DNA of 64,000 nt from contig CAZPQW010000010.1 of assembly GCA_964588985.1 (NCBI GenBank), positions 1 through 64,000 of the forward strand, read 5' to 3'. Of the stretch, positions 20,368-41,118 are shown in pieces. Made by a program: the position numbers and the translations under genes. How positions within the stretch are numbered: position 1 is the stretch's first letter; every line of letters starts with the position of its first letter. Source of the stretch: an uncultured Solirubrobacteraceae bacterium (GTDB lineage Bacteria; Actinomycetota; Thermoleophilia; Solirubrobacterales; Solirubrobacteraceae). Below the pieces are notes generated by a model. The model searched no databases and was not told the DNA's origin. It saw only the letters and a list, made by a program, of their open reading frames with translations.

Positions 20368-20399
20368 CATGGCCAAGTCCGAAGGCCAAATCAGGGCGT

Positions 20400-20470: not shown

Positions 20471-20482
20471 TTTGTCTTGCCA

Positions 20483-20556
20483 CGGGGAGTGGCGCAGTCT
20501 GGTAGCGCACCCGGCTGGGGGCCGGGCGGTCGCAGGTTCAAATCCTGTCTCCCCGA
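20483..20556 (+). tRNA. tRNA-Pro(GGG), CCA not encoded
   Basis: CGGGGAG/CTCCCCG acceptor stem, CCCGG-CTGGGGG-CCGGG anticodon arm, GGTTCAAATCC T-arm. Confidence 0.96.
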
Positions 20557-20709
20557 TGAAAAGTCGCAGGATCAGAACCTTGCACCTCGTCGCGAATGGT
20601 GGCGAAAGCCGCAAAAACGCTGGGATTCTTGGTCGAGCTTTCTCGTCTGTTCCCGGCTGTTCCCGGCACGCGGGACCGCAAAAGGACCGCAGGGAGCACG
20701 TTGCGGTCC
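20544..20709 (+). repeat. att core 1 (CCTGTCTCCCCGAT) plus left arm with GGACCGCA boxes
   Basis: Core 20544-57; boxes 20673, 20684, inverted at 20702; ~150 bp similar to 24126-24275. Confidence 0.85.
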
Positions 20710-20922
20710 CTCTGGCCAGGGGCGCACGGGTCCGAAGCCCGCCAGTCGCGCTGATTGGAGGCGGGATGATGGCCCCAACTGGACGAGGTCACGCGGACGC
20801 CCGGCAGCCCAATTCATCGTCCTCAGGTGCGAGCCCGCTCGCGCTGATGCGTTCGCAAGAGCAACCCCCGCCCGCGCCGCGTTGGCTGGCTCATCTCGGT
20901 CCTCGTCCCGAACACGGATATG

Positions 20923-20928
20923 TAGAAT
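20923..20928 (+). promoter_or_regulatory. Putative -10 box for the retron transcript
   Basis: TAGAAT ending 7 nt before the first retron inverted repeat. Confidence 0.6.
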
Positions 20929-20935
20929 TGTCGCA

Positions 20936-21073
20936 GGCTGCAACGCTGGCGTCTGTGTTTCCCTGGCGATTCGCTTGGGCTATCGAACCTCTCGCTTTTA
21001 CCCGCCGCCCGCGCCCGGAGTATCTCAATCGCTGGCAGTAGGAGAAGAAGGTAGATTCGCCAGCGTTGCAGCC
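20936..21073 (+). ncRNA. Retron msr-msd ncRNA
   Basis: Perfect 16-bp inverted repeats GGCTGCAACGCTGGCG (20936-51) / CGCCAGCGTTGCAGCC (21058-73) enclosing a short hairpin and a long imperfect hairpin, directly upstream of the RT. Confidence 0.85.
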
Positions 21074-22751
21074 AACGACCGACATCCCGGTCCTCCTGAC
21101 CCGTGCCGACGTGGCCAGGCATGTCGGCACGTCACTGCGTCTCCTGACCTGGTGGATCTGGGCCTACGACGAGGACAACCGCTACTACGAGTTTGAGGTC
21201 GACCGGCGCACGGGAGGCACTCCGCGCATCATCAGCGCCCCGATCAAGCCGATCAAGGACTTCCAGCGTGCTTTGTTGCCGATGCTCGATGGCGCCTACT
21301 CGCCACGCCCACACGTCCACGGCTTCGCACGCGGCCGCAGCCCACAGACGAACGCCGCAATCCACCGTGGGCAGCGCTGGATCCTTCGCATCGATCTCAA
21401 GGACTTTTTCCCGACCGTGCACTTCGGTCGTGTTCGCGGCGTCTTCTCGGCGCACCCGTTTGACTTTCCAGAGGAGGTTGCGACGGTCCTGGCGCAGATC
21501 TGCTGCCATCGCAAGGTGTTGCCGCAGGGCGCACCGACATCACCGGTGATCTCCAACCTGGTCTGTCGCTCCCTCGATTCCGAGCTCAGCCGCTACGCGA
21601 AATCAAGGCACTGCCACTACACGAGATACGCCGATGACATCTGCTTTTCCTCCGGACAACGCGTGTTTCCCGGTGCGCTGGCAAGCATCGTGAACCAGCA
21701 ACCGGTGTTGCACCCGGATCTCCGGCGATTGATCGAGAACAACAACTTCACGATCAACGACGACAAGACCCGGTTGATGAGGTGGAGCCAGCGCCAACGG
21801 GTCACGGGCATCATCGTCAATCAGCACCTGAATGTTCCGCGTGAGTACAGACGACATATTCGGGCGGTCCTGCACATCTGGGATCAGTACGGCGAAGCCG
21901 ATGCGGTGGCGGCGTTCGCGCGGGCGACGGTACGCAATTGGCCACCTGAGAAGCCCGCGGCTGACTTTCCGCTAGTGGTTCGCGGTCAGTTGCAGTATCT
22001 CGGTGCGGTGCGCGGCTACGACGGCGTCTACCAGCGGCTCGCCGTCAAGCTTGCGGCCCTGGACCCGTCCTTCAAAGCCACCGCGCCGACGGTCCCAGCC
22101 CAGGGCCTCGTGACGTTCGCGACTGAGGGGCCGAGCGACCCCCAACATCTCGAGGCAGCCACACGGTTCTTTCGGGCGAACGGCGAGTTCGACGAGCTTG
22201 ACCTCCGGCACGTCAATCACATGCCGCCCAAGAACGACAATGAGCTGTGGAAGTGGCTGCAAAAGGAAAAGGACGTTCCGAACCCTGTCCCACGCGTGGG
22301 CGTGTTCGATGCCGATACAGGCTACGCGCTGAAGCTGGGGGAAAAAGGATGGGAGCACCTCGGCAACGGTGTCGTCGCGGTCGCGCTGGCAGCTGCTCCG
22401 TGGCTCTCCGCGGGCCAACGCGTTTGTATCGAGATGCTGTACCCGCCATCGGTTCTCGCGAGCTCCGACAAGGAGGGTCGGCGTGTGTGGTTGCGGAGCG
22501 ATTTCGACGAGGCGGGCGTCAGCCACGACGGCCGCTACCAGATGCAGTATCCGCAGAAGACGACCCTCGTGGTGGAGCACGTTCATCCGGTGGGGGATTC
22601 GGGCGAGTCGGTCGGCCTAGCGAAGGTCGCGTTTGCGGACGCCGTAAGGCGCGGGCAGCCCCCTTTTGATCACGTGGACTTTGAGGGCTTCCGCCCCACC
22701 CTCGAGCGATTTTGGCGCGCGGTCGCCACAGCGCAGACGTGGTGCACTTAG
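21066..22751 (+). CDS. Retron reverse transcriptase fused to a C-terminal TOPRIM domain (Ec67-like, type I-C)
   Basis: NAAIH (region X), DLKDFF, LPQGAPTSP, YADD, VTG (region Y); C-terminal TEGPSD...FDAD TOPRIM pattern. Confidence 0.9.
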   Translation: MQPTTDIPVLLTRADVARHVGTSLRLLTWWIWAYDEDNRYYEFEVDRRTGGTPRIISAPIKPIKDFQRALLPMLDGAYSPRPHVHGFARGRSPQTNAAIHRGQRWILRIDLKDFFPTVHFGRVRGVFSAHPFDFPEEVATVLAQICCHRKVLPQGAPTSPVISNLVCRSLDSELSRYAKSRHCHYTRYADDICFSSGQRVFPGALASIVNQQPVLHPDLRRLIENNNFTINDDKTRLMRWSQRQRVTGIIVNQHLNVPREYRRHIRAVLHIWDQYGEADAVAAFARATVRNWPPEKPAADFPLVVRGQLQYLGAVRGYDGVYQRLAVKLAALDPSFKATAPTVPAQGLVTFATEGPSDPQHLEAATRFFRANGEFDELDLRHVNHMPPKNDNELWKWLQKEKDVPNPVPRVGVFDADTGYALKLGEKGWEHLGNGVVAVALAAAPWLSAGQRVCIEMLYPPSVLASSDKEGRRVWLRSDFDEAGVSHDGRYQMQYPQKTTLVVEHVHPVGDSGESVGLAKVAFADAVRRGQPPFDHVDFEGFRPTLERFWRAVATAQTWCT

Positions 22752-22864
22752 AGTGCAGAGGCGGCAAGCTGCGGAGCCCGGCTTTCTAGAGCCAAGTTAG
22801 GCCACGGCAGATCGGCTTGTCGAGGATCGTTTTCTGTCTCATGTGGGACCAGGCTTGCCGCGAT

Positions 22865-23821
22865 CTATGGAGTCGAGGCGTCGTCGAGTACCCACTTTTT
22901 GCGCTTGTCCCAGTTTTTTCGCCAAGCCGGGGATCCCTTTGGCGGGAGGACGAATGTGGATGCGAGGACCAGCGGTCTTGGCGTGTCGAGCATCGCAATC
23001 TCGACATGGGTGCGAATGGATGCCGCGATCAGAGCATCCATGTTTTCGGTCTTCGCGACGCCAGCGACGATCAATCGCGCTCCCCCATCGACCGCGAGAT
23101 GGTGCTGATCTTGTCTAACGAACACGCTGTCGGGGTCGTGAGGATGAATTTTGATCTTGTCGAGCGGTACCGAAGTGCCAAATGAGGTCCAGAGGACCCC
23201 CTTATTCAGATGGCGCGGGATGACAAGACGTTCCCCCTTGACTGGGCTCAAGACAATCTCCAGCTGCAACGAGCAAGAACACAGTTCGTTGCCCTCCGGG
23301 GGACGGATAGATTTGGCCCAGAGGTGGCCACGAATCATCTCGACGCTTGGTAGGAACCGGAGAGGCCGAAATACGCTTAGGAGCTCGGAGCGGGTAGCAG
23401 TGCGGATCGCGGTGGCCTCCCGCCATGGAATCTCCTTGGTGACGGGCGATTGAGACGTCTTGACAACGTACGGCGCGTGATCCGTCCCGAACTCCAGAGC
23501 GACTGCACTCTTACCTCCTACACTGACCGCCCTATCGCGAAGCGCTGGAACGACTGCGTCGAAGTAGCTTGCTACCTGTGCCCACCAGTTGTGGGTCGCG
23601 GTGTGCTCACAACCAACAAGTCCGCGCTTCTCGTCGATGCCGATGATCCACAGGACGGGTGCTCCTCGACCCGCGTTGGCGTGGCCGGCGATGCGTCGTG
23701 CTGCCTTCTGCGGGTTTGGCCAAGCGGACTTCAACTCGATTCGCGAGTCCTCGACGTGCTGTTTCGCCTCGATCCTGGCGAGGACATCACGGACAATCGC
23801 ATCAAGGTCGGTCGCATGCAT
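22865..23821 (-). CDS. Schlafen/AlbA_2-domain protein
   Basis: EDSRIELKS...IAGHANA.G...IIGIDE; C-terminal domain not recognised. Confidence 0.75.
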   Translation of the reverse strand: MHATDLDAIVRDVLARIEAKQHVEDSRIELKSAWPNPQKAARRIAGHANAGRGAPVLWIIGIDEKRGLVGCEHTATHNWWAQVASYFDAVVPALRDRAVSVGGKSAVALEFGTDHAPYVVKTSQSPVTKEIPWREATAIRTATRSELLSVFRPLRFLPSVEMIRGHLWAKSIRPPEGNELCSCSLQLEIVLSPVKGERLVIPRHLNKGVLWTSFGTSVPLDKIKIHPHDPDSVFVRQDQHHLAVDGGARLIVAGVAKTENMDALIAASIRTHVEIAMLDTPRPLVLASTFVLPPKGSPAWRKNWDKRKKWVLDDASTP

Positions 23822-24071
23822 GGTCGCTCGTGACGCCTAGCGGGTGACGACGGGTCTCGAGACGCAAGGATACGGTGAGTGCACATCTCCTTCAACAGCA
23901 GAGGATCGCCGCAGGCCCGACAGCCAAGATCGTTTCTGCCTAATCGGGACGAACTCCGGATCGCGACTAATGCGCACGGCTGGTTTACCGCCAAAGCGTC
24001 CTCCCAGGTCTCCAAACCGCAGCGCCGATCCCACGACCAGGCGGCTACGGCAGGCGAGCCGGGAGGGATCG

Positions 24072-24294
24072 AGACCGCAAACGGACCGCAGAACCACGAA
24101 AAATCGCTCAGGAAAGCCAACCGAACCTGTCTCCCCGATGAAAAGTCACAGGTTCAGAACCTTTGACAGATCCATGAACGGGAGCAAAGCCGCGAAAAGA
24201 CGGGGGTTGGTGGTTGGCTGTTCTCGCGTGTTCCCGCTGTTCTCGGCACGCGGGACCGCAGAAGGACCGCAGCGAAGGGCAAAAGGGGACCGCA
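24072..24294 (+). repeat. Unit 1/2 junction: right arm boxes, att core 2, left arm boxes
   Basis: (A/G)GACCGCA at 24072, 24083; core 24126-39 identical to tRNA end; GGACCGCA at 24253, 24264, 24287. Confidence 0.9.
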
Positions 24295-24453
24295 GGAGAA
24301 CAGCAGAGTTGTCGAATGCTGTCAGCCACTCAGAGGCCTTGGTGTGAATACATGTCGGTGCCCGGAGTTGTCCCGTCGGTACGCCTGCGGGGGATTCCAG
24401 GCAGGTAGCTCGCCGTAGTGTCGGCCCTCGCACGAGCGAAACTCCGCGCGGCG

Positions 24454-25356
24454 CTAGCTGGTCGGCGTCGGCGGAAGCGTCTCGTCTCGCTCGCGGACGC
24501 GCAGTACGGCGTGGATGGTGGCGAGGTAGACGTAGAACGCCCACCGCAGCCACGTCAACCGGTCGTAGTCGCCGCGCTGGTGGCGGTTCTGGTGCCTGAT
24601 CGCGAAGCCGTTCGCGATGTGGAACAGCTCCCTCTCGTCCTTTGTCAGCATCGCCTCGTGGATGTCCTCGCGTAGCGCCTCCAGCACGTCCGCTAGGTCT
24701 CGCACGGCGACGCGGCGGTCATCGAGGCTGGCGCCGCGCGTGCGGAAGCGCTTGGTCGCCGAGTCGAGCTTCGAGGCGATCTCGGCCTCGGTGCTCGGGG
24801 GCACGGCGGCGGTCAGCAGCCCATGAAACTCGGCGGGTCCGGCCTCCACGACCATGCCGTCGTCGTTCATCTCGTACGGTGGATCGTGCAGCCTCAGCAC
24901 ACCATTCATCTCGTCACGGAACTCCGCCTGCCCGGCGGCTGCGTTGAACGTGTCGTAGTGCCAGCCGCACCGGGCGTAGTCGTGATACCGGCCGTCAATC
25001 GGCCGCGAGATAAGGTCGTGCATCGCCTCGACTACGTCGAACAGAGTGTCCTCGTCCCAGGCTTCATACGGTGCCATCCACTCCTCGGGACCAACCTGCG
25101 AGATCTCCCAATACGGCCAGACTCCCCTGCGCCTGATTGTGCGCATGAAGTACGCGCTGGGATTTGACCCAAGGGTGCCATCGACGTCCCCAGCATCAAC
25201 GCAGTCGTAGCCGAACGCCTCCTGCATGTAATGCTGCTCGCGGAAGTGATCGAAGACGTTGATCACAAGCTCGCGAAACTCAGGAAAGGGCAGCGGTTCG
25301 GCCTTCGGACCGCGACCCTGACGCTCGGAGAAATACTGCTTCACGGTGTCGGCCAT
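24454..25356 (-). CDS. AbiJ-like protein with putative C-terminal HEPN domain
   Basis: YFSERQG N-terminus; helical C-terminus LADVLE...IANGFAIRH. Confidence 0.6.
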   Translation of the reverse strand: MADTVKQYFSERQGRGPKAEPLPFPEFRELVINVFDHFREQHYMQEAFGYDCVDAGDVDGTLGSNPSAYFMRTIRRRGVWPYWEISQVGPEEWMAPYEAWDEDTLFDVVEAMHDLISRPIDGRYHDYARCGWHYDTFNAAAGQAEFRDEMNGVLRLHDPPYEMNDDGMVVEAGPAEFHGLLTAAVPPSTEAEIASKLDSATKRFRTRGASLDDRRVAVRDLADVLEALREDIHEAMLTKDERELFHIANGFAIRHQNRHQRGDYDRLTWLRWAFYVYLATIHAVLRVRERDETLPPTPTS

Positions 25357-25438
25357 ATAGCGGCCCAGGATAGCCCCAAGCCTCTGGCGATCACCCACGT
25401 TCGACGACACATCCGCGGTGACGGGCAGACTGCTCCTG

Positions 25439-25584
25439 ATGCCGGAGATCGACCCACTCGCGAAGCTGATCCTAGACGAAGCGGTGCACGGTCTCGACAC
25501 GCAGAGCGAGACGCTGAACAGCTGCGCAACCGCACCGGCGTCCTCATCGCCGCGGCCACGATTGCGACCGCCTTGCTCGGGTCG
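25439..25584 (+). pseudogene. Frameshifted, truncated membrane protein gene
   Basis: MPEIDPLAKLILDEAVHGLDTQSETL continues as QLRNRTGVLIAAATIATALLGS after an apparent 1-bp deletion near 25516. Confidence 0.5.
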
Positions 25585-25962
25585 ATCCCCACATGTTCTC
25601 GGCCATGTCCCGTGAGGGCCCAGCCGGGCGGGAGGCGGAGGCTACCAGTCCTAGTTGGGCATGCCAGCCGCTTGGGTGGATGCTCGAATCGCGTCCGCAC
25701 GAGGCGTTTAGATAGAAACGAACCACCCGAATGAAGACGCCACGATCATGAGACGTTTTCCCTGCAACTCCAACATGTAGAGGGTCATGACTGCTCCGCC
25801 GCTCAACCCACCAAGCGCAGAGCGAGCCAGCACAGGGAATGCTTGGACCTGCGGGGGCCGGGCAATGGCGATGGGTGCGAACCTGCAAGGCTTTCGCCTC
25901 GCCAGCGGCGGTCCGATCCACATTGCGAAGGGTTTCGGAGAGGGACGGTCAGTCGGCAGGCG

Positions 25963-26163
25963 ATGATGAATCTACTCAAGCTTTTCAACCGGGCATTGGG
26001 CGGTGGAACGACCGCTCCCCCCTCAACTGGCCGCGCAAGCCAGGCCTCAATCGCGCTTGAGGAGTTGCGGTCGGCGCGGGAGGATCAACGTCTCCACGAG
26101 CTCCTGGCTTCAGCAGAAGCAGAGGGCGCCGCAGTAGAGAGTGCCGGTCGTAAGCACTGGTAG
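25963..26163 (+). CDS. Small protein, paralogue of 26813-27028
   Basis: C-terminal EELRSAREDQRLHELLASAEAEGAAVESAGRKHW aligns with the paralogue. Confidence 0.7.
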   Translation: MMNLLKLFNRALGGGTTAPPSTGRASQASIALEELRSAREDQRLHELLASAEAEGAAVESAGRKHW

Positions 26164-26170
26164 GTTGCGT

Positions 26171-26782
26171 CTACGCCGCGTGTAGCGGCACCCAAAGCGG
26201 CACCCAAAGCCGGATTTGGGAGTGATCCGCCGTAAAGGATCGCCGGAATCCATAGTGCTTTTCCATGTGTTCGGCGGTCGGAATGTTGTTGAGTGGATCA
26301 AGAACGGCGACTGGGGTTCCTTGCAGATGCGCGACCTTCAGGGCGATGTATATCGCGTAATGCATGATCAGCCGGCCAGGCGTCTCGCTGTTTCGATGTC
26401 GAGCTATCCACGCGATCAAGGACGCGCCTTGCACTGGCTCTGGGATGGAGCTGGGTTGTTCGTGGGGCAGTTCTTTCCGGTGCTCCTTATTGAGCTTGAT
26501 GGAGTCGGATGCCAGCGCGAAGAAGCCGTCTATCTGACGCCCAGATTCAGACTTGAGGACCCACGTGACGGTTGATGGATAGTCTGAAAGAGCCGACTTT
26601 CTCAGCCACTCCGCAGATTTTTTCCCGCTATCGGTTGGGACCGATTCAAACTCGTCGATCAGGGGGCGGAGATCGCCAAAAACCGACTCACGCGCGTTCT
26701 GCGGCGTCCATCGGAACCAGCCGTCATCGATACTCATGTCTGCTGGAAAATCAGCGTGATGCGTCGAGGTAGGTGCCGCCAC
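26171..26782 (-). CDS. Divergent GNAT protein, TacT/AtaT toxin-like
   Basis: FES...EWLRKSAL..TWV..IDGFFALAS...LIAWIAR...G..AVLDP...HYGF follows the GNAT toxin pattern. Confidence 0.65.
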   Translation of the reverse strand: MAAPTSTHHADFPADMSIDDGWFRWTPQNARESVFGDLRPLIDEFESVPTDSGKKSAEWLRKSALSDYPSTVTWVLKSESGRQIDGFFALASDSIKLNKEHRKELPHEQPSSIPEPVQGASLIAWIARHRNSETPGRLIMHYAIYIALKVAHLQGTPVAVLDPLNNIPTAEHMEKHYGFRRSFTADHSQIRLWVPLWVPLHAA

Positions 26783-26812
26783 GCCCCCATGACGTGCACG
26801 AGCAGGTGATGC

Positions 26813-27028
26813 TTACCACTGCTGGCGACCCTCCGCCTCGATCCTGGTTCCCTCGGCGACTGCGGATCGGAGCAAGTCGTGGACCGTGGGGTCGCGCTGT
26901 GCCTTGCGAAGCTCCTCGGGGTCAATGATCACCGACGGCGCGTTTCTTCTGGCTCCATCCACGGGTTGGAGTAGTCCCACGGAGTTGGCGGGATCTCCCC
27001 CCAGCACTGCGATCCCACTAGCCTCCAT
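26813..27028 (-). CDS. Small protein upstream of the GNAT gene (putative antitoxin)
   Basis: GAAGGAG RBS; co-oriented with GNAT; paralogue of 25963-26163. Confidence 0.7.
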   Translation of the reverse strand: MEASGIAVLGGDPANSVGLLQPVDGARRNAPSVIIDPEELRKAQRDPTVHDLLRSAVAEGTRIEAEGRQQW

Positions 27029-27169
27029 TGTGCTCCTTCGGTTGATTGGCGGTGCGATTGACCCTGCGAGCGCGTGACCCTAGCACAAGCACAGGCGGCA
27101 CTGTCTATCCAGACAAGCGGAATAGCGCTATGCGCCGGAACAGCCCATATCTCGTATGGGTCGCAGATT

Positions 27170-28516
27170 TCAATGCCAGTGAACGCCGGTGATGTTCATG
27201 CGGATCACGTCAGCTTCGCGCATCGAAACACCGGAGAGCCACGCTCCACTTAGGTCTGCGTCCGCGAGGATGGCGTGGTCGAGGCATGCGTCTCGCAAGT
27301 CGGCGCCTCGTAGGGTAGCGCCCCTTAGGTCTGCGCCGGTGAGGTCCGCTCCGCAAAGAACAGCCTCGGAGAAGTCGGTGCCCACTGCTACGCTTTCCAC
27401 CAGCTTCGCGGACAGCATGGACGCCTTCCGGAACGACGCATGGGCGATCACCGCGCTTGTAAGTTCAATCGAGTTGAGGTTTGCGCCAACGAACCTCGAC
27501 GCAACCAGATTCGACTTGGCGGCACGAACAGCCGCGAGGCCCGCTCGATCGAAAACAGCCCGATCCGCAAAGGCCGTACGCAGGTCGGCCCGGTCAAGTC
27601 GGGCGTCGCTGAGATCAGCGTCCGTCAGGAGGGCTCCGATCATCTCTGCATCGACGAACTCGCTCCTAGCGAGCTTCGCGCTGGTGGCGACGACACCGAG
27701 GAGTGAACTGCCGACGAAGCGTGCATCCCTGCAATCCGCATTTATGAAGCGGGCGCCGCTGAGGGTCGCGCCGGTGAAGTCGGCCTGGGAGAGCGACGCA
27801 TCACTGAAGTCCGCGTCGGCGAGATTGCTGGCGCTGAAGCGCGTTCGGTGTAGCTGTGTCTTACGGAACTGGCACCTAGGAAGCTGGCTGCGAGAGAAGT
27901 CCGTCCGAGCGAATTGGCCACGCGAGAGCCGTGCGCCCTCCATCGCCACTCCGCTCAAATCAATCGTCGGCATACGCGCATGGTCACTTCGTGGATCCCG
28001 TCGACCAAGGACGGACAGGGCTGTCTGGGTCTCGACGCTCGGCGTCCTCGGTGTGTTGTTCAGCGGTATCAAGCCCCGCACGTGTGCCGCCAACAGCTCG
28101 GTGATGGCGGGGTGATCGCGCCGCGAGTCTTGGGCGATCCGCTCAAGCGCGAGAATCCCGCCGATCGATACCGAGCCCGGCCGGTCGAGCTTTTCCACTG
28201 CCGAACTGAAGCGATCAGTCAGGTGTCCTTCCGCACTGATTCGCAGCGTTCGCGCTGTGAAGAAGGCCCCGATCAGCAGCAGTCCCCCGCCTATGGCCTG
28301 GAGGCCGATTGATCGAACGTCGTCCTGCAGTTTGATCTTCGCCGCATCCGGATGGTTTCCCGAAACTATCCAATGTGGCGCCCAGATGAGTGCGAGGGGC
28401 ACGAGGAGGCATACGGCAAGGAGGACGACGATGGTGAAGATCCCGACGGGTGATCTCCGCCTTCGCCGCCCTCCGAGCCGTCTATGGTCACGCTGCCATC
28501 CAAGACCTCCTTTCAT
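27170..28516 (-). CDS. Pentapeptide repeat protein with N-terminal TM segments
   Basis: TDRFSSAVEKL...GGILALERIA, then long A(D/N)LxX repeats. Confidence 0.9.
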   Translation of the reverse strand: MKGGLGWQRDHRRLGGRRRRRSPVGIFTIVVLLAVCLLVPLALIWAPHWIVSGNHPDAAKIKLQDDVRSIGLQAIGGGLLLIGAFFTARTLRISAEGHLTDRFSSAVEKLDRPGSVSIGGILALERIAQDSRRDHPAITELLAAHVRGLIPLNNTPRTPSVETQTALSVLGRRDPRSDHARMPTIDLSGVAMEGARLSRGQFARTDFSRSQLPRCQFRKTQLHRTRFSASNLADADFSDASLSQADFTGATLSGARFINADCRDARFVGSSLLGVVATSAKLARSEFVDAEMIGALLTDADLSDARLDRADLRTAFADRAVFDRAGLAAVRAAKSNLVASRFVGANLNSIELTSAVIAHASFRKASMLSAKLVESVAVGTDFSEAVLCGADLTGADLRGATLRGADLRDACLDHAILADADLSGAWLSGVSMREADVIRMNITGVHWH

Positions 28517-28645
28517 GAATGAACCCCATCGGTACTGCGAACACCGCGCTGAGCGCGCGGCGGCCTACTTGTGGCTCCGGGCCCGAATCGGAGCTGAGAC
28601 CTCCTGTGGTTGGTGGTTGACCGAGCTGGCGCCATAACCTCACAG

Positions 28646-28689
28646 TAGCACATTAGCTAGGACATTTCGCGGACATTATATAGGGCATT
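28646..28689. promoter_or_regulatory. Four phased direct repeats TAGGRCATT-like (putative operator array)
   Basis: Copies at 28646, 28658, 28669, 28681 (12/11/12-bp spacing). Confidence 0.6.
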
Positions 28690-29414: not shown

Positions 29415-29482
29415 ATGCCCTATCTAATGCCCTATTATATTGCATTGCCTGCTACACTTGCGGCGATGAAGGGCAAGACATA
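29390..29482. promoter_or_regulatory. AT-rich divergent promoter region with the same repeat boxes
   Basis: AATGCCCTA at 29414 and 29426; TATGTCTTA at 29390; CAAGACATA at 29474. Confidence 0.55.
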
Positions 29483-29527
29483 ATCACGACCTAGGTGATC
29501 TCTCTGATCGCTCGAGTAGGAGGCACG

Positions 29528-30477: not shown

Positions 30478-30667
30478 GCGGGTCGCTACGGGTTTCGCCG
30501 GGGTGATGGCGTGGCACCGCTCGACCATCTCCTGGCGATGGCCGGGTACTCAGATCAGCGCGAGACGGTGGCGATGGCTAGAGGCAATGAGCGCTCAAAG
30601 GTAGATCCAGGACGGCGTCAGATTCCATGAAGCTCTCTAGATCCGGAGCGTGGGATACGGTGGACTG

Positions 30668-31540: not shown

Positions 31541-31577
31541 AGGATCGCCCGCTCACCTCCGCTAGCAAGCGAGGTCT

Positions 31578-32423: not shown

Positions 32424-33196
32424 AGGTCGGGTTCGACCTCGAGATTGATCCGCAGGCCCCAGGTGAGGTCCAGCGGGCCGGGTGCCGGGCCGCTGGCGCT
32501 CAGCGAGGTTGGTTTGCCCTGCTGCGGCTGGGCGACGGCGCGCAGTCGCTCGAGGTTGACGTCGGGCCGGTGGTGTTCGAGCATCCAGCCGAGCCTTCGC
32601 GCGACCGCTTTTCCGCGAGGCGTGGCGATGCGCGCCAGGGCTCTGCCGTCGAGTTTGCCGAGCTCGATCAGGACGGTCGCGACGTTGTTCAGTCCGCCGC
32701 TCTTGAGTGGGTTCTGGATGAGGTCCACGGCGGTCGTCTCGCGGGTGGCGAGCTGCAGGTACCCGGAAGGGCCGTTGCGGCGTTCGGTCTCGGCGTCGGG
32801 GAGATAATGGCTGGTGTAGAACCGCAGACGGTTGCGCCCGAGGGTCCGGTCGGGGATGTCCTTGTCGGTGATCACCTGGAATACCTGGGGCGCTTGGTGT
32901 GCGGCGCCGTGCATGGATGCGGCTGTGAGCAGCGCGATGTAGTAGCGGCGGCCCAGGTGCTTCATCATGTCGTCGATGAACCAGTCCGCGGGCGGGGCAC
33001 CCCACGAGCGGTATTGCGCTGGTACCACGGCGTAGAGCCCGCGGGCGGGGGAGATGATGGATCCGTTCTGGCGCAGCCGGTGTAGTCCGGCGTGCAGCGA
33101 GGCGCGGTCCAGGCCGGTGAGCTCGAGGAGTTCCTCGGTACTCGCCGCGTGGCGACCCTGGGCGATCAGCGCGTCGGGCAGCTCGTGGAGCTTCAT
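32420..33196 (-). CDS. abiEi: AbiEi antitoxin (type IV TA)
   Basis: wHTH with RGLY, YY..LLTAA.MHG..HQ.PQ, ET.VDL; upstream of AbiEii. Confidence 0.88.
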   Translation of the reverse strand: MKLHELPDALIAQGRHAASTEELLELTGLDRASLHAGLHRLRQNGSIISPARGLYAVVPAQYRSWGAPPADWFIDDMMKHLGRRYYIALLTAASMHGAAHQAPQVFQVITDKDIPDRTLGRNRLRFYTSHYLPDAETERRNGPSGYLQLATRETTAVDLIQNPLKSGGLNNVATVLIELGKLDGRALARIATPRGKAVARRLGWMLEHHRPDVNLERLRAVAQPQQGKPTSLSASGPAPGPLDLTWGLRINLEVEPDL

Positions 33197-33365
33197 GACC
33201 TCAGACTAGGGCAAAATGACGTTTTTCATAAGTTTGCCCCAGCGACAGCACTTATCCACGTTGCCCCTTCGGCGGCCTCCAACTCGATGCCCACGCGCGA
33301 ACAGGCCCGCCACGCCCCGACCGAGGTTGACCTTGCGCGCCGGCTCCGGATAGCCGCGACTTGCT

Positions 33366-33530
33366 ATGCCCTCTGACTTCACCCAACTGATCGCAGGCAT
33401 CGAACGGGAGGCCCACGACGAGGGCCCGCCAGCCGTGCGTGAGCTGGAGCAGCTCCGCGCGGAGTTCAAGGGCGTCGGCCAGCCAGCGGAGGGGAGATCG
33501 GCAGGCGACGTTGAGGAGCCTCGAAGCTGA
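33366..33530 (+). pseudogene. Probable truncated XRE-type antitoxin N-terminus
   Basis: MPSDFTQLIAGIEREAHDEGPPAVRELEQLRAEF, then loses plausibility; no HTH follows. Confidence 0.35.
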
Positions 33531-33623
33531 TCGTCGCACGTGCTCGCGAGAGAGGCGTCGTTCGTGATTGCTCGGCTACTTCGACGCGGTGGTCGGAGAG
33601 CGATTCGCTATCGACTAGCGAAT

Positions 33624-33680
33624 CCGCCCACGCCCGCAAAATAACCCGCAAGCGCGGGCCGCTGCACCTGTCTCCCCGAT
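33624..33680 (+). repeat. Unit 3/4 junction: CCGCCCACG box and att core 4
   Basis: Box 33624-32; core CCTGTCTCCCCGAT 33667-80 identical to tRNA end. Confidence 0.85.
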
Positions 33681-33769
33681 ATTTGCGCATCCCTCCAGAA
33701 AGCTAGACCCTCTGGAGGCACTGGTAGCCTGCTGCCGTTCGCAGTAGTTCGACCGAGCAAGGGATCCAA

Positions 33770-34369
33770 TTGCGCGTCTGTGTCGTCAGCATCGTAACGC
33801 TCGCCGTCGCGTCCGGGCTCGGTGTGCCCGGCGTAGCAAGCGCGACGATCCACAGCGGCCGCATCGTATTCCCAGAACCGCACAACCCTCCGAGCATCGG
33901 CGTACCGCCTCCTCCTGAGGTTCAGACGAAAGAGTCTACGCGCGAAGTCATCGTTCGATACAACGCGAGCGTAGGCACTGTCACCCTTCGTGCGGAAGTC
34001 TTCGATCCAGCTCTTTGGGGCGAACAGATTGGCGAAAGCTTCAGACTGGGCCCGAAATGCCTCAGCTACGATGAAAGTCTGTTCCATCCTCCCGAATTCA
34101 GCGCGAACATGAGCGCGAGACCGAAACGCACGGGGCTATTCGGTGAAGAAGTCGGTGGCGTCACGGGCGAAGCGACGCTTCGCGGCTACACGGGCCATGT
34201 CAGCAGCACCGGCATGTTCAACGGCCGCTACTTCGACATCACGTTCACGAGCAGCGCGTTTCGCAACCGGAACTGGCGCTGCGCCATGCTCACATCGTTC
34301 GGATCCTCTTTTCCGCGTGTTCCCCTCGATGGCTGGCGCAAGGCGAACCGGCCGCGCAAGCCTCGGTAG
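33770..34369 (+). CDS. Putative secreted hypothetical protein
   Basis: Signal-peptide-like N-terminus ending ASA. Confidence 0.55.
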   Translation: MRVCVVSIVTLAVASGLGVPGVASATIHSGRIVFPEPHNPPSIGVPPPPEVQTKESTREVIVRYNASVGTVTLRAEVFDPALWGEQIGESFRLGPKCLSYDESLFHPPEFSANMSARPKRTGLFGEEVGGVTGEATLRGYTGHVSSTGMFNGRYFDITFTSSAFRNRNWRCAMLTSFGSSFPRVPLDGWRKANRPRKPR

Positions 34370-34597
34370 AGCAGCCGGCGCGCGGCGACCGGACGGGACC
34401 TGGGACGCCCCGTGGTATGCGGCGGCGGATAGCAGGGCGACGTAACGGTCTTGGTGCAGGTTCATCGCCAGCGACCGCGCCCGCGTGTCTCACCCACAGC
34501 CACCGACTCCGGAGTCCTTATCGAGTCTGCTGTCCCGCTGTAGCGCGCCTCGTCGGAGTGGAAGAGCAAGGCAGGTCCCTCAGAAAGGCGTGGTTTC

Positions 34598-36220
34598 ATG
34601 GACGTCGCGTTTCCCGAACACCAGCAGGGTCCCTGGTCGGCTATCGGTGTGGCTCTTCAGTGGCTCGTCCATACAGTGCTCCACGTCGGGCTCGGCGTGG
34701 CGATTGGATTGTTCGCGGCGCGGTTCATGCGCCGCCATCACCTGCACTGGACGTGGGCGCCGGCGGTGCTCGCCTTGGTGGTGTATGCGCATGTCGGGGT
34801 CGGAGGTTCTACCTTCACGCTGATTCTCGCGTCCATCGTTGCCACGGTTCGCTCTCGACGTTGGCACCGCGAAGACATCGAGTCCGGCGCGGATCTCATG
34901 GAGATCGCGGCTCAACGGCACGGACCGATGGAGTTCCTGCGCACGATCGCAACGGGGGTCGATGAGCGGCGCGGCGCTCGGGCTGGTGCTGACGGGCCGG
35001 ACACTCAGCGGCTGGCGCTCGGTCGTGACGAGAGCGGCCGGACGGTGGCGATCCCGTTCGGCGAGCAGGCGGGCGCGCGTCACACACTCGTGGTGGGAGC
35101 CACCGGCTCGGGCAAGACGGTCACCCAGACGCTGATGGCGGTCGATGCGATCGAGCGCGGTATGGGCGTGGTCGTCGTCGACCCGAAGGGCGACGATGGA
35201 ATGCGCTCGGAGCTTCGGTGCGCAGCGCAGACTGCGGGGCGCAGGTTCCTGGAGTGGACGCCTGCGGGAGCGTGCGTGTTCAACCCGTATGCGTGCGGCG
35301 GTGAGACGGAGATCGCGGACAAGATGCTGGCGGGCGAGCGTTTCACCGAGCCTCACTACCTGCGTCAGGCCCAGCGTTACCTCGGTCATGTCGTGCGTGC
35401 GCTGCGCGCGGCGGAGGTCGAGGTGAGCCTCGCGGTGATCGTCGCGTACCTCGACCCCGATCGCCTGGAGGTTCTCGTCCGTAGCCTGCCCAAAGCTCAG
35501 GCGCAGGCGACTCGGGCGTATCTCGACTCGCTGAGCCCGCATCAGCGCCGCGATCTCGCGGGTGTCCGAGATCGGCTGGCGATCCTGACGGAGTCCGACG
35601 TCGGGCCGTGGCTGGATCCGCGGACCCCCGATGTCGAGCAATTCGACCTGCAGGCCGCGGTGCGCGAACGCGCGATCGTGTACTTCAACCTCGAAGCGGA
35701 CAGTCGGCCGTTGCTGGCGCAGATGCTCGGTGCTGCGATCGTTCAGGATCTGCAGAGCACCGTCGCTGCGCTGCAGGAGAATCCGATCGCGACGCTCGTG
35801 GTGATCGATGAGTTCTCGGCGCTGGCCGCTGAGCGCGTGGTTGGTCTGTTCGCGCGGGCTCGCTCGGCCGGGATGAGCCTGCTGCTTGCGACACAGGAGC
35901 TCTCAGATCTGCGCCTGCCTGGACGCGAGATGCTGCTCGAGCAGGTGATGGGGAATCTGTCGGTGGTGATCGCCCATCGTCAGGTGGTCCCCGAGTCGGC
36001 TGCGCTGATCTCCAGCATCTCTGGAAGACACGGGGTGTGGAAGGTCTCTCGCCGGAGCGACGGCGCCACCACGCGCACACGCATCCGGGAGGCTGTGCTC
36101 AACCCCGACAGGATCGCCGGTCTTGGGCAGGGGTGGGCGGCCGTCGTCCTGCTCGGCGGCGCCGCGAGTGTGCGAATCACGCGTGTCACCATGCCCGCTC
36201 AGCGACCCTTGAGCGCGTAA
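34598..36220 (+). CDS. Type IV coupling protein (TraD/VirD4/TrwB-like)
   Basis: N-terminal TMs; HTLVVGATGSGKT, VDPKGD, FNP, VIDEF, LATQ. Confidence 0.88.
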   Translation: MDVAFPEHQQGPWSAIGVALQWLVHTVLHVGLGVAIGLFAARFMRRHHLHWTWAPAVLALVVYAHVGVGGSTFTLILASIVATVRSRRWHREDIESGADLMEIAAQRHGPMEFLRTIATGVDERRGARAGADGPDTQRLALGRDESGRTVAIPFGEQAGARHTLVVGATGSGKTVTQTLMAVDAIERGMGVVVVDPKGDDGMRSELRCAAQTAGRRFLEWTPAGACVFNPYACGGETEIADKMLAGERFTEPHYLRQAQRYLGHVVRALRAAEVEVSLAVIVAYLDPDRLEVLVRSLPKAQAQATRAYLDSLSPHQRRDLAGVRDRLAILTESDVGPWLDPRTPDVEQFDLQAAVRERAIVYFNLEADSRPLLAQMLGAAIVQDLQSTVAALQENPIATLVVIDEFSALAAERVVGLFARARSAGMSLLLATQELSDLRLPGREMLLEQVMGNLSVVIAHRQVVPESAALISSISGRHGVWKVSRRSDGATTRTRIREAVLNPDRIAGLGQGWAAVVLLGGAASVRITRVTMPAQRPLSA

Positions 36221-36233
36221 GGGCTTTCGCGCA

Positions 36234-36959
36234 ATGGCTTACAGAAAGGAGTTCCTGCTCGCCCGTGCGGAGATGGTTGAGTGGGTGGCGCGTATCGGCG
36301 CTGTCACCGCGGACGCGTTCGCCGAGCGTGAACGTTGCAAATTGCAGGCAGCGCGCGGACGCTTGCAGGCAGCTGCGAAAGCTGGGCTGTTGTCGAGCTC
36401 GCGTCCTCTGCAGGGTCGTCCGGCGATCTATACCGCGACCGCCGCTGGGCTGCGCGCGGCAGATCTGGAGCGTTTGGAGCCTGGTCGTGTGAGCGCCGCG
36501 AACGCCGCGCACGCGATCGCCTGTGCGGAGGTCGCGGTGATGCTCGAACTCGCATACCCCGACTACCGCGTGACGGGCGAGCGCTGGCTGCGAGGCGAAG
36601 AAACCGATGGCACGCCGCTTGCGAGCGCGATCCTCGGCCGGCGAGCAGACGGATCGCCGCTGCTGCACAGGCCCGACCTGGTGCTCTGGCCGATGTCGCA
36701 GGAGAGCGTCGCGGAAGGGTATTTGCCTATCGCGGTCGAGGTCGAGCTGACCGTCAAGGCGCCGGGCAGGCTGCTGGAGATCTGTCGCGCGTGGGCACGC
36801 TGCGACTGCGTCGAGGCCGCGGTCTACTTCGCCGCACCCGAGGTACTCCGGCCGCTTCGACGGGCAATCACGAAGGCACACGCCGACGAGCGGATCGTGG
36901 TGCTCGAGCTGAAGACGGACTCCCGCAGTCCTGGGTCAAGCTCCAGAGGACTCCGATAA
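36234..36959 (+). CDS. Replication-relaxation-like relaxase (wHTH plus PD-(D/E)xK)
   Basis: IYTAT..G, AHAIAC, RPDLV, AVEVELT; next to the coupling protein. Confidence 0.65.
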   Translation: MAYRKEFLLARAEMVEWVARIGAVTADAFAERERCKLQAARGRLQAAAKAGLLSSSRPLQGRPAIYTATAAGLRAADLERLEPGRVSAANAAHAIACAEVAVMLELAYPDYRVTGERWLRGEETDGTPLASAILGRRADGSPLLHRPDLVLWPMSQESVAEGYLPIAVEVELTVKAPGRLLEICRAWARCDCVEAAVYFAAPEVLRPLRRAITKAHADERIVVLELKTDSRSPGSSSRGLR

Positions 36960-36970
36960 CGGACCGTGAA

Positions 36971-38158
36971 ATGGATCAACGTCTCAATCCCTACACGCCG
37001 GGATCGGGCGTAAAACCGCTCAAACTCGCCGGACGGGACCCGGATCTCGAGGCCTTCCGCGTGCTCCTCGAGCGCCTGGCCGACGGTCGGCCGGAGCGAA
37101 GCCTGATCTATTCTGGCCTTCGCGGCGTGGGGAAGACCGTGCTGCTGCTCGAGTTCGAGACCCTCGCACGCGAGAGCGGCTGGGTTTGCAACGACGTCGA
37201 GGAGGTGGGCTCCGGGGACTTCCGCCAGGCCTTCGCAGAGCTTGCGTATCAGCTGCTGCTGTCGATGAGCCGGCGCGAGCGGATGCAGAAGCACGCGAGC
37301 AAGGCGTTTGGCGTGCTGAAGGCGTTCTCGATCGGGATTCCGGGTGGCTTCAGTGCGAGGATCGACGTCGAGGCTGCCATCGGTACGGCTGACAGCGGTG
37401 ATCCCGAGCGCGATCTGGCTGCCCTGCTGGTCGAGGTCGGCCAGGTGGCCCAGAGTGGTGGCACGGGGGCGGTGTTCTTCCTCGACGAGATGCAGGGGCT
37501 CAGCGAGATGGCGCTCGCGGCGGTGTGCATGGCTATGAACCGAGTTGGTCAGCGGGGTTTGCCCGTGGCCCTGGTCGGAGCGGGCTTGCCGCCGCTGCCG
37601 CGGCTCCTTCGGACCGCCAGGCCCTACGCGGAGCGCATGTTCGCTTACCATGAACTCGATCGCCTGACGGACGCCGAGGCGCGAACCGCGCTCGTCGCGC
37701 CGGCGGGACAGCACGACGTTACGTATGAGCCGGAGGCCGTCGAGCTCATCGTCGAGGCGTCCGCGGCGTATCCGCACTTCATCCAGGAGTATGGGCGGGT
37801 GCTGTGGAACGAGGTCGAGCGCTCGCCGATCAGCGCCGGCGATGTCGACGGCGCGCGTGCGCTCATCGACGAGGCGCTCGATCGCCGCTTCTTCAAGGAC
37901 CGCTTCGAGATGGCCTCCGACGCGGAGCAGCGATACCTCGCAGCGATGGCCGATGGAGGGGGTGGGCCGATCAGGACGGCCGAAGTCGCGGCGCGGGCCG
38001 GCTACAACAACAGCGCCAGCGCTTCCGTCGTGCGCGACGCGTTGCTGCGCAAGGACCTCGTGTACAGCCCGCGGCGAGGACTGATCGACTTCACGGTCCC
38101 GCTGTTTGGCGGGTATCTACGGAGGCAGCATTCACTCTCCAGCTTCGACGAGGAGTAG
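36971..38158 (+). CDS. AAA ATPase with C-terminal winged helix
   Basis: NPYTPGSG, GLRGVGKT Walker A, FLDEMQ Walker B, YPHFIQ. Confidence 0.88.
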   Translation: MDQRLNPYTPGSGVKPLKLAGRDPDLEAFRVLLERLADGRPERSLIYSGLRGVGKTVLLLEFETLARESGWVCNDVEEVGSGDFRQAFAELAYQLLLSMSRRERMQKHASKAFGVLKAFSIGIPGGFSARIDVEAAIGTADSGDPERDLAALLVEVGQVAQSGGTGAVFFLDEMQGLSEMALAAVCMAMNRVGQRGLPVALVGAGLPPLPRLLRTARPYAERMFAYHELDRLTDAEARTALVAPAGQHDVTYEPEAVELIVEASAAYPHFIQEYGRVLWNEVERSPISAGDVDGARALIDEALDRRFFKDRFEMASDAEQRYLAAMADGGGGPIRTAEVAARAGYNNSASASVVRDALLRKDLVYSPRRGLIDFTVPLFGGYLRRQHSLSSFDEE

Positions 38159-38399
38159 GCGCTCGGCGCTCTATAAGGGTCTATCTGCGAACGGAGATAG
38201 ATTCGCGAGAGTTGGCCACCGATCCGCTCGATGGCCTCCTTGCGGAGTCGCCGGAACCCGATGGTTCGCTCGCGGTCGCCGTCCCGCCTTTGAGATCGTA
38301 CGGCTCTCCAAGATCCCGACAGGGATATGAGGTGTTCTCCATCTTCTAAGGGTTTGACCTCGACCTCCGATAACTCGTTGAGAGATGAGTCCAGGAGAG

Positions 38400-38894
38400 A
38401 TGAGCAAACGGCCCCCATCGAGCCACCGTTTCGCCGCGCGATTTTCGGCGGCGTTGCTGGCGGCCGTCTCATTGGCCGGTTGCGGTGGCGGTGGATCGGC
38501 GCCCAAGCCACTCAGCATGGCTCAGTTCGTATCGCGCGCTAATGCCATCTGCTCGAAGGGCAACAAGCGCATCAACGCGCTGCATGAGCCGACAGACGTG
38601 CCCGGGATCGCGACCTACATGGCGGCGGCGCTCCCGATCGCGGAGGAAGTGCAGACGAAACTCGGTGCTCTCGTTCCACCAACCGGGGATCAGAAGCAAT
38701 ACACCCGCGTCCTCGGCCTCCTCGCACAAGCCATCTCCAAGGTATCCGAAGTTCGCAGCGCCGCCGAAGCAGGCGAAGAACAGCGCGTGCGGCGCCTCAG
38801 CAACGACCTTGCGGCTCTGCAGCAACGCGAAGACGGCGCCAATGAAGAACTCGGGTTGAAGCAGTGCGTGGGCAACGGGGAAACGGAAGGCTGA
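38400..38894 (+). CDS. Putative lipoprotein
   Basis: LAGC lipobox; ANAIC...C pair. Confidence 0.75.
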   Translation: MSKRPPSSHRFAARFSAALLAAVSLAGCGGGGSAPKPLSMAQFVSRANAICSKGNKRINALHEPTDVPGIATYMAAALPIAEEVQTKLGALVPPTGDQKQYTRVLGLLAQAISKVSEVRSAAEAGEEQRVRRLSNDLAALQQREDGANEELGLKQCVGNGETEG

Positions 38895-38896
38895 CG

Positions 38897-39499
38897 ATGG
38901 AGGGCGGCATTGACGACACGCGCGGCATGGCGGGAGGCTGGTCTTGCAACGCTTGCGGCGGACGCATCGAGACTGGCGCGCAGTTCTGCAGCGCCTGCGG
39001 ACAGAGCGTTCGGTCCACCGGCACCGACGCATCCTCAGCCTCGGCGAGCATCTCCAAGACGGCGGAAGCAGCGCAGCAACGACTCGTCGCAGCTCCCGAG
39101 CGTGTCGTATTTCACTGGATTCTCGGGAGCTCGCTGGCGCTTGGGCTCGGCTCGGTCGGCCCATGGGCAACCGCCACCGTGCTCGGCATCACCGTCTCGG
39201 CGAGCGGACTCCGCGGCGGCGGATGGGTGACGCTGGCAGTATCGGGCGCGACGATCCTCCTTCTGCTCAATCCGGTCTGGCTCGAGCGTGCCGCCTGGCT
39301 GCGTGAGCGCCGGCTGGGCGTGATGGTTGGGCTGGCAATCCTTGCGGTGCTCATCTGCCTGCTCAACCTCGTCGGCGCCGAGCATTCGGGGCTCGAAGGG
39401 ATCGTACATCCGGGCTGGGGCCTTTACCTATCGATGGTTGCGTCGATAGCCCTCACCGTGTGGGTGCGGGTCGCACGCGCGCAACGCCGAGGTGCATGA
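38897..39499 (+). CDS. Zinc-ribbon membrane protein
   Basis: CNACG...FCSACG followed by four TMs. Confidence 0.75.
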   Translation: MEGGIDDTRGMAGGWSCNACGGRIETGAQFCSACGQSVRSTGTDASSASASISKTAEAAQQRLVAAPERVVFHWILGSSLALGLGSVGPWATATVLGITVSASGLRGGGWVTLAVSGATILLLLNPVWLERAAWLRERRLGVMVGLAILAVLICLLNLVGAEHSGLEGIVHPGWGLYLSMVASIALTVWVRVARAQRRGA

Positions 39500-39551
39500 C
39501 CGCGGAACGCCGAATGGCTTGGCAAAGCCACCCTGAACCCTTCTCCCCGAT
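39497..39551 (+). repeat. Right end of array: degenerate arm and variant att core 5
   Basis: GACCGCGGAAC...AAAGCCA..GAACCCTTCTCCCCGAT aligns with 24084-24139 and 30308-30364. Confidence 0.75.
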
Positions 39552-39568: not shown

Positions 39569-41059
<1,491 letters not shown>

Positions 41060-41118
41060 TCACAACTCCCCTTTTCCGTAGGTTCTGGCCTGCGGCGGGG
41101 GAGTATGAGGCACACCCG

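Follow-up and report, generated by a model that had tools for sequence, protein, structure and literature searches.

Cis-mobilizable elements (CIMEs), in the sections of the source that treat them, have the attL and attR of a tyrosine integrase family on their flanks but no integration genes, and they occupy, in tandem with related elements, the 3' end of a conserved gene (PMC5704250). The same sections describe composite excision of CIMEs as possible and refer to ICESt1 and ICESt3 of Streptococcus thermophilus and to pathogenicity islands of Streptomyces (PMC5704250). A comparable arrangement is found in the first 64 kb (hereafter the window) of C10, a 116.7-kb contig of the draft genome G000 (3.41 Mb, ~70% G+C, completeness 95.9%), where four units bounded by copies of a 14-bp core follow the tRNA-Pro(GGG) gene. 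Units 1 and 2, together with the distal end of unit 4, probably represent a conserved line of non-autonomous integrative elements that use the attachment system of a tyrosine integrase, here called IntX, and that accrete at tRNA-Pro as helper-dependent hitchers. As with CIMEs, the units of the window are att-flanked, integrase-less and arranged in tandem at a tRNA 3' end (PMC5704250). They differ from CIMEs in forming one large family, seen in 92 of 301 sampled genomes of the genus (mostly metagenome-assembled genomes, so that missing genes may be unassembled; the 92 take in G000 itself and one unpublished genome, G174), with up to five units per array and both complex arms intact. CIMEs, in the usual description, arise sporadically by decay of a specific integrative and conjugative element (ICE), whereas 35 of the 36 units compiled here are free of relics, and most host genomes are without the presumed cognate integrase.

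Stacking of elements at tRNA genes is shared with the tycheposons of Prochlorococcus. These are, in the portion of their description used here, tyrosine-integrase elements with tRNA genes as their targets and defence or niche genes as their cargo; each new integration displaces earlier elements inwards, the islands contain partial tRNAs as well as degenerate remnants, and the elements are defined by their integrases (937 integrase-carrying elements) (10.1101/2020.12.28.424599). The integrase-less pieces of tycheposon islands are presented there as degenerate and with unclear borders, whereas the borders here are sharp and the arms conserved (10.1101/2020.12.28.424599). The closest system for recombinase-less modules shuffled by an enzyme encoded elsewhere is that of the Xer-dependent dif modules of Acinetobacter plasmids, which in the excerpts cited are site-bounded and carry no recombinase (PMC13141974, PMC6449649). 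Those modules use 28-bp dif-like sites and the ever-present host XerC/D, while the sites here are long and element-specific and the candidate enzyme belongs to a mobile element. Actinomycete elements of the pSAM2 type use a tyrosine integrase to insert into the 3' part of tRNA-Pro and carry their own int, xis, rep and tra; their identity segment with the tRNA is much longer than the 9-14 bp seen here, and the units are without int, xis, rep and tra. The minimal hitchers of conjugative elements, in the passages that define them, are islands without relaxases and not islands without integrases (10.64898/2026.01.13.699239). The logic of CIMEs and of tandem accretion is known; what differs here is the occurrence of many small, sharp-bordered integrase-less units with both arms around unrelated defence cargo. 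No published description of such an arm-bounded unit family was found in the literature searched (supplements not covered).

Defence genes turn over fast, and the way in which small chromosomal defence islands move is often unclear. The present family is recombinase-free and sharp-bordered, is present in ~30% of the genomes sampled from a soil genus, and includes at least one unit recently shared between species. If IntX is the helper, these units would provide an example of integrase hitch-hiking that is both clean and abundant, would extend the notion of minimal hitchers past the borrowers of relaxases or capsids, and would explain how, in uncultured Actinomycetota, tRNA hotspots come to hold arrays of defence systems. 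The arms and IntX together would give a compact, testable site-specific recombination system.

Core-bounded units and their arms

The left side of the array is marked by two tRNA genes on the plus strand, both detected with ARAGORN and Rfam: tRNA-Gly(TCC) (20400-20470), the conserved left neighbour of the hotspot, and tRNA-Pro(GGG) (20483-20556). The final 13 nt of tRNA-Pro and one further base make up the first att core (attB/attL, 20544-20557). This 14-bp core, CCTGTCTCCCCGAT, recurs exactly at 24126 and 33667 and with two mismatches (12/14) at 30351 and 39538, as a first-pass annotation made from the sequence had reported. All five copies lie on the plus strand, four of them downstream of tRNA-Pro(GGG). 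Shuffled controls gave a mean of 0.60 matches, and none of 100 shuffles reached five; across the whole genome, the relaxed core pattern CCNNNCTCCCCGAT occurs at these five places and at one unrelated site on contig C27. The ~20 kb downstream of both tRNAs have a G+C content of 0.60-0.68 versus 0.70-0.75 in the flanks, and the Rfam scan of the window returned the two tRNAs and no other match. The cores delimit unit 1 (20558-24139), unit 2 (24140-30364), unit 3 (30365-33680, with core 4 at 33667-33680) and unit 4 (33681-39551, with core 5 at 39538-39551).

The arms of units 1 and 2 all lie on the plus strand. The left arm of unit 1 (20558-20745) starts with the hexamer GAAAAG and continues with a degenerate copy of the tRNA T-arm, GCGAAAGCCGC..AAAA, three copies of CTGTTCYCGG and then GGACCGCA repeats (20673-20710). 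Its right arm and core 2 (24071-24139) consist of two copies of GACCGCA followed by CGAAAAATCGCTCAGGAAAGCCAACCGAA and the exact core at 24126-24139. The left arm of unit 2 (24140-24310) holds three GGACCGCA copies at 24253-24295, and its right arm (30295-30364) ends in variant core 3, CCTTACTCCCCGAT, at 30351-30364. The homologous ~55-bp segment that the first reading had placed before the cores at 24126, 30351 and 39538 is indeed there (repeat families D1 and D8), as is the duplication of the ~150 bp that follow cores 1 and 2 (D2, 91%; D11, 95%). Clusters of GGACCGCA occur in G000 in the two left arms only, apart from one pair in a coding region on contig C2.

Just past the core, at 20558-20590 and likewise in relatives' left arms, the tRNA T-arm/acceptor 3' region is present a second time in degenerate form, with GTCGCAGGATCAGAACCTTGCACCTCG resembling GTCGCAGGTTCAAATCCTGTCTCCCCGA. 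This second copy may be the relic of a longer ancestral identity segment or may represent a set of core-type binding sites.

A unit family across the genus

The unit 1/unit 2 junction (24040-24300; right arm, core and left arm) was the query that matched the 92 genomes. Tandem arrays comprise five units in G118 and three each in G067, G292 and G172 (14 further arrays compared), and the 36 compiled units measure 2.3-16 kb. An alignment of 25 units shows the left arm to be conserved over ~180 bp in a constant order: GAAAAG or TTTCGG, then GTCGCAGGTTCAGAACCTT (the degenerate tRNA T-arm region), GCGAAAGCCGCGAAAA, three copies of CTGTTCYCGG and three of GGACCGCA, the last of which is inverted in some units. 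The right arm has two GGACCGCA-like repeats followed by CGAAAACCGCATAGGAAAGCCAAC, a consensus common to units of 20+ relatives. Arrays of direct repeats are thus a feature of both arms (GGACCGCA, CTGTTCYCGG and GAAA(A/G)CC). Such repeats are predicted to serve as arm-type binding sites, and the sites of the window would then be complex attP-type arms of a heterobivalent-style tyrosine integrase. A conserved small protein encoded in the left arm was also considered and is disfavoured by the one-base indels in the alignment. Right-end cores have the form CC(TGT/TTA)CTCCCCGAT: positions 6-13 (CTCCCCGA) are invariant in 34-36 of the 36 units, positions 3-5 vary, and the variant CCTTACTCCCCGAT (CCTTA, identical to core 3 of the window) closes 11 of the 36 on the right.

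When all open reading frames (ORFs) of the 36 units were compared with one another, the arm sequences alone proved common to most units, and clusters of cargo genes were common to at most three or four. Pfam-sampled cargo in relatives is largely defence-like (McrBC with a methylase (MTase), SAVED, Mrr, DUF6119 with a DprA-like protein, GmrSD, AAA_16 and subtilase). Two insertion sequences, with IS110-family and IS3-family transposases (L008 of G028 and L026 of G019), also lie within family units and are probably secondary insertions. A 20-nt arm pattern has 112 stretches in the collection of species-representative genomes; among the 80 listed, 77 are Solirubrobacterales or Solirubrobacteraceae by record title. 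The same pattern has no stretch in viral contigs, and the 261-bp junction has no match in the phage and plasmid collections.

Several families of tyrosine-integrase elements in this lineage, which is probably Solirubrobacteraceae, use the 3' end of tRNA-Pro(GGG) as an integration hotspot. Downstream of tRNA-Pro(GGG) in the genus, 24 of 31 informative loci have at least one further core-like match and 7 have none. Two kinds of repeat are present at these loci, a long one comprising 31-47 nt of the tRNA and the short 14-nt core that follows the right-arm motif ..CGAAAACCGCATAGGAAAGCCAAC.., and the islands contain at least four integrase families: C37-type, C16-type (with a 47-nt repeat), C20-type and IntX. 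Family arms are also seen near other tRNA-Pro isoacceptors and at sites beyond the GGG locus (L055-L066; G005, G029, G034, G073 and others), and in G029 three tandem tyrosine recombinase genes, in a recombinase-trio arrangement, lie ~3 kb from a family right arm.

One explanation for such units is the ordinary decay of islands, each unit being the remnant of an island that lost its integrase by deletion and the array a graveyard without ongoing mobility of its units. Decay to CIMEs is a textbook route in the sections cited above (PMC5704250). One G118 unit retains a ~60-aa integrase fragment, and in the window unit 3 combines the left end of a C37-type element with the right end of a C16-type element, while unit 4 has a coupling protein and putative relaxase from an element that in G009 carries an integrase. 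For units 1 and 2, derivation from an ICE or an integrative and mobilizable element by deletion would fit the homology of their arms to those of IntX elements, and no relic genes remain. Decay nevertheless sits poorly with most of the family. Both arms are intact in the 35 of 36 units that show no trace of an integrase (no match to 21 integrase queries at E<=1e-3), so that integrase pseudogenes in each unit, which the first-pass annotation had named as the finding that would overturn its view, come down to the single G118 fragment. Units as small as 2.3-3 kb exist, and the non-coding arms are 77-87% identical across genomes, versus 71-79% for flanking genes. The 99.9% identity of a unit with core-exact ends in two species, and the absence of unit 1 precisely at a core in a related strain, both described next, also argue against decay, which we regard as an unlikely account of these units.

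Evidence that units move as units comes from three comparisons. A 5352-bp unit of G219, located next to a tRNA-Pro-like repeat, has 99.925% identity to unit three of the array in G067; the identity runs from the first base of the left core through to the final base of the right one, and no similarity is seen in the flanks. G219 and G067 are species representatives, i.e., they stand for two species, and the cargo of the shared unit consists of an MTase, a GmrSD_N protein and unknowns, with no recombinase. The second comparison concerns four public runs, which were set against the window as assembled contigs (Logan) rather than reads; uncovered parts in runs X19, X14 and X20 are counted as evidence only where a contig bridges them. 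Contigs of X19 cover the tRNA and unit 2 at 95-99% identity and leave units 1, 3 and 4 uncovered. One of them joins 20556 to 24146 with seven other letters between, and therefore a homologue of unit 2 abuts the tRNA and unit 1 is absent in that population. Past the end of unit 2, the X19 contig that extends that far runs into arm-like sequence other than unit 3. Third, homologues of the cargo turn up in chassis of other kinds: the retron of G144 lies within a C37-type integrase element at the same tRNA. Differences in content between relatives thus map to the cores, as had been predicted at first pass.

Exchange of this kind could also proceed by homologous recombination, with the arms and the tRNA as homology anchors and units swapped after DNA uptake or conjugation, without any site-specific integrase. 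Such a route would suit the 57 of 92 arm-bearing genomes in which IntX was not found, and it would suit the retron cargo, which a family unit carries here but a C37-type element carries in G144. A low-depth contig of X20 (depth 2.4) is of interest in the same respect: it joins 24236 to 20659, homologous left-arm positions about one unit-1 length apart, and the joint may stem from a tandem duplicate, from a circle or from arm-to-arm recombination. However, the 99.9% identity block stops exactly at the cores and not in the neighbouring arms, the CCTTA core variant keeps to the right-hand side of units, in line with the prediction for site-specific exchange, and a right arm of only ~55 bp, with arms that differ by 10-25% between units, is a poor RecA substrate. 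Homologous recombination as the general mechanism is accordingly judged improbable. Joints in the runs with sides of 20-21 letters (e.g., 20278 to 24840 and 24739 to 35498) probably stem from repeats or other organisms and were not used.

The candidate helper integrase and other recombinases

The claim of the first reading that the window contains neither a tyrosine nor a serine recombinase extends to the whole contig. PF00589 matches 13 times in the genome at E<=0.01 and 15 times at E<=10, never on C10 even at the looser threshold; PF00239 (serine recombinase) has one match in the genome, on C17, and none on C10. A tblastn search of 20001-42100 with 21 integrases gave nothing better than E=0.008, and that best match (34589-34801, minus strand) runs antisense to the N-terminus of a coupling protein and was set aside as a chance match. 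Within units 1 and 2, no integration or transfer genes were detected by Pfam on ORFs, PF00589/PF00239 or tblastn. An integrase beside the att site, the mark of an autonomous tRNA-targeting island, is absent from the window but present in the IntX elements of relatives.

IntX is a tyrosine integrase whose gene lies on the opposite strand, 0.5-1.5 kb inside a homologous left arm, at 7 of 80 arm-pattern loci and in G179. Its members are 68-98% identical to each other and score 37.4 and 31.8 bits on PF00589, where the cut-off is 27.1. IntX elements occupy tRNA-Pro(GGG) and also tRNA-Pro(CGG) in G289 and tRNA-Pro(TGG) in G233. An 8-kb element in G190 and a ~65-kb span in G102 both end in the family right arm with the CCTTA core, and the left and right arms of both share 79-88% and 76-87% identity, respectively, with those of units 1 and 2. 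With their cores and IntX-homologous arms, units 1 and 2 are att-bounded in the manner of CIME-like elements. IntX elements stand in tandem with integrase-less units in G179, G036, G069, G190 and G102, so composite excision is conceivable.

Because homologous arms flank IntX-bearing elements, an integrase supplied in trans, as the first-pass annotation had put it, appears the most economical explanation, with IntX as the candidate; IntX itself was not found in this genome. Each unit of the family consists of a ~180-bp left arm, 2-16 kb of unrelated and mostly anti-phage cargo and a ~55-bp right arm ending in the core. Under the favoured reading, IntX from elsewhere would recombine such units in trans, or it would act in cis where an adjoining IntX element in the array allows a composite to excise. 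Strand exchange would take place within the invariant CTCCCCGA, since the invariant positions 6-13 and variable positions 3-5 match established att-site logic; the tRNA would keep CCTGT at attL and remain intact, and the element's own CCTTA or CCTGT would stay at attR. Repeated insertion beside the tRNA or into internal cores would then build tandem arrays. The G000 array would be a stockpile, immobile at present unless a helper arrives, because the genome is without IntX. What the data show directly is how the units are built, that they form a family without integrases, that they are present or absent exactly at cores and that near-identical ones occur in different species; the dependence on IntX, the crossover position and the route of cell-to-cell transfer are what we infer in this scheme.

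A set of observations weighs against IntX-dependent movement. No unambiguous circle junction or empty site was present in the assembled contigs of the four runs, and no recombination was observed directly. IntX was not found in the genome of the window, where the best tblastn match, 24-32% identical, is a C37-type integrase; nor was it found in G067, G118, G172 or G292, and G219 yielded a fragment only. Since most arm-bearing genomes (57 of 92 at E<=1e-30) are without IntX, it is arm homology by itself that points to dependence on this integrase. The proximal ~40 bp of the left arm differ as well, IntX elements having ACGTT/ACCTTAAAG... and most units GAAAAG/TTTCGG followed by GTCGCAGGTTCAGAACC. 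The C37-type integrase uses the same 14-bp core and is present in G000, which makes another helper possible. Finally, units 3 and 4 fit ordinary decay better.

Co-occurrence across the genus was also considered. At E<=1e-30, IntX is present in 73 of 301 genomes: it was found in 35 and not in 57 of the 92 genomes with arms, and found in 38 and not in 171 of the 209 in which arms were not found, an odds ratio of 2.8 among genomes of which many are incomplete and kin are not independent. For both of these reasons, the co-occurrence of arms and IntX is a weak indication only. Many full-length IntX matches hold one in-frame TGA (e.g., G029:C8:2278449-2280050 and G011:C10:114633-116234), and other genomes have the first ~130 residues as a match of their own in a different frame; the N-terminal part may form an independent ORF, or recoding or frameshift may join it to the rest.

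The C37-type integrase has orthologues (63-81% identical) in tRNA-Pro islands of relatives, which have the same 14-nt core but different arms. In G000 itself, the 24.4-kb contig C37 contains two copies of the gene, at 857-1303 and 4701-5147, one of them with an in-frame TAG, and neither a tRNA nor a core was found on that contig.

The comparison with integrons, which the first-pass annotation had extended to the way the array works, is of a different order. A recombinase-less array of cassettes at one site, with the integrase encoded outside the cassette, is common to both. Chromosomal integrons have been reported to carry defence cargo. A true platform of that kind would imply a dedicated resident integrase that captures and reshuffles cassettes at the tRNA, and in its favour the genome holds 13 other tyrosine recombinase matches, including the C37-type integrase whose relatives use the core. 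There is, however, no integrase on the 116.7-kb contig and no IntX orthologue in the genome, and no GGACCGCA cluster lies anywhere else in it except for the coding-region pair on C2. No intI/attI/Pc platform and no folded attC-type sites or attC-like structures were seen; the unit ends are direct-repeat, attP-type arms with a tRNA as target, and the units hold 2-6 ORFs on both strands where promoterless single-ORF cassettes would be expected. The claim that the array works like an integron was therefore dropped, a resident platform being very improbable, and the resemblance holds only by analogy.

A further-reaching version of the favoured reading is put forward tentatively, at slightly less than even confidence. 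The units may have evolved, in Solirubrobacteraceae, into recombinase-free att cassettes that keep nothing but a complex attP, parasitise the IntX of larger elements, trade anti-phage genes between species and accumulate behind tRNA-Pro genes, so that arrays would form an exchangeable defence library whose integrase comes from transient visitors. If true, this would amount to a functional analogue of the integron made from phage-type att sites and a tRNA gene. The description of the units at first pass as self-contained, att-bounded defence cassettes agrees with units 1 and 2, and the cargo is mostly defence; it does not extend to units 3 and 4, which are mosaics.

Cargo, mosaic units and flanking genes

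Unit 1 carries a retron-type reverse transcriptase (RT) and a 318-aa protein. The retron-type module (20805-22751, plus strand) comprises a non-coding stretch (20805-21065) and the RT gene (21066-22751), whose 561-aa product has an RT domain and a fused C-terminal domain. The RT belongs to the retron clade, with matches to Pfam RVT_1 (5.9e-22), PADLOC RT-TIR_XII (6e-128) and other retron RT models; NCBIfam retron models match it too, all under their own cut-offs. Positions 20805-22750 are 88% identical in G216 and 71% in G144, and the non-coding stretch is conserved jointly with the RT in G216; Rfam gave no non-coding RNA match in the module. The 318-aa protein (22865-23821, minus strand) has a weak Schlafen/AlbA_2-like N-terminus (Pfam E 0.0061, 17.5 bits versus a cut-off of 25.3) and no PADLOC or NCBIfam match.

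Unit 2 encodes an AbiJ-like/PDC-S32-like protein (24454-25500, minus strand) that reaches 30.3 bits with AbiJ_NTD4, below the cut-off of 34, and 4.3e-8 with PADLOC PDC-S32. The gene has 79% DNA identity in G270, ~5 kb from a left-arm match on the same contig. The unit further holds two unknown ORFs (26171-26782 and 28689-29414) and a pentapeptide-repeat membrane protein (27170-28516), all on the minus strand, and an ORF with a weak HTH on the plus strand (29495-30028). Some of the cargo names given at first pass held, namely those for the retron-type RT, Mrr, AbiEii, AbiEi and the coupling protein; Schlafen, AbiJ_NTD4 and Replic_Relax do match, in each case below the Pfam cut-off, and neither GNAT nor RES has a match among the ORFs of unit 2 in Pfam or PADLOC.

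Units 3 and 4 are mosaics made of the decayed, recombined remains of other types of element with the same core, because their ends and genes match those of C37-type, C16-type, G023 and G009 elements. Unit 3 carries Mrr (30650-31540, plus strand; Pfam, PADLOC mREase_IV) and an adjacent minus-strand pair, AbiEii (~31578-32423; Pfam 1.1e-31) and AbiEi (32420-33196; Pfam AbiEi_1 1.3e-23), which together have the composition of an AbiE toxin-antitoxin system. The left end of the unit resembles that of C37-type integrase elements (..GTTGGATGCTG), the region of a small conserved ORF (33289-33468) resembles the right end of C16-type integrase elements, and the AbiE pair is 78% identical to a 1.8-kb unit with its own cores in G023 (L017j 11614-13454). 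A degenerate core between Mrr and AbiE (~31549-31562, 8/14 by eye) is too weak to claim.

Unit 4 ends in a degenerate family-type right arm before core 5. It contains an unknown ORF (33770-34369), a TraD/VirD4-type coupling protein (34598-36220), a weak Replic_Relax match (36234-36959; 24.7 bits versus a cut-off of 25.3), an AAA_16 ATPase (36974-38158), a small membrane or secreted protein (38385-38894) and a zinc-ribbon membrane protein (38864-39499). The coupling protein is 68% identical to its counterpart in an integrase-bearing element at the same tRNA in G009 (L007), and the ATPase is 67% identical to a gene that adjoins tRNA-Pro in G016 (L032).

Directly past the last core, a region with an FAD monooxygenase and an SDR (39569-42013, minus strand) still has a low G+C content and is probably older foreign DNA. 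The FAD-dependent aromatic-ring monooxygenase (39569-41059, minus strand) is 77-90% identical in relatives, versus 71-79% for genes of the left flank, and in G023, too, it comes after the final core of an array (35 kb); an older unit probably carried it as mobile cargo. Synteny with relatives is absent on the right side, except in G034, which matches C10 at 62.9-65.8 kb. The assemblies of G001:C266, G035:C12, G004:C6, G012:C3 and G013:C6 break no more than a few kb from tRNA-Pro or at the locus itself, and contig ends at this position fit a hotspot that is repeat-rich or variable in the population and that breaks assemblies.

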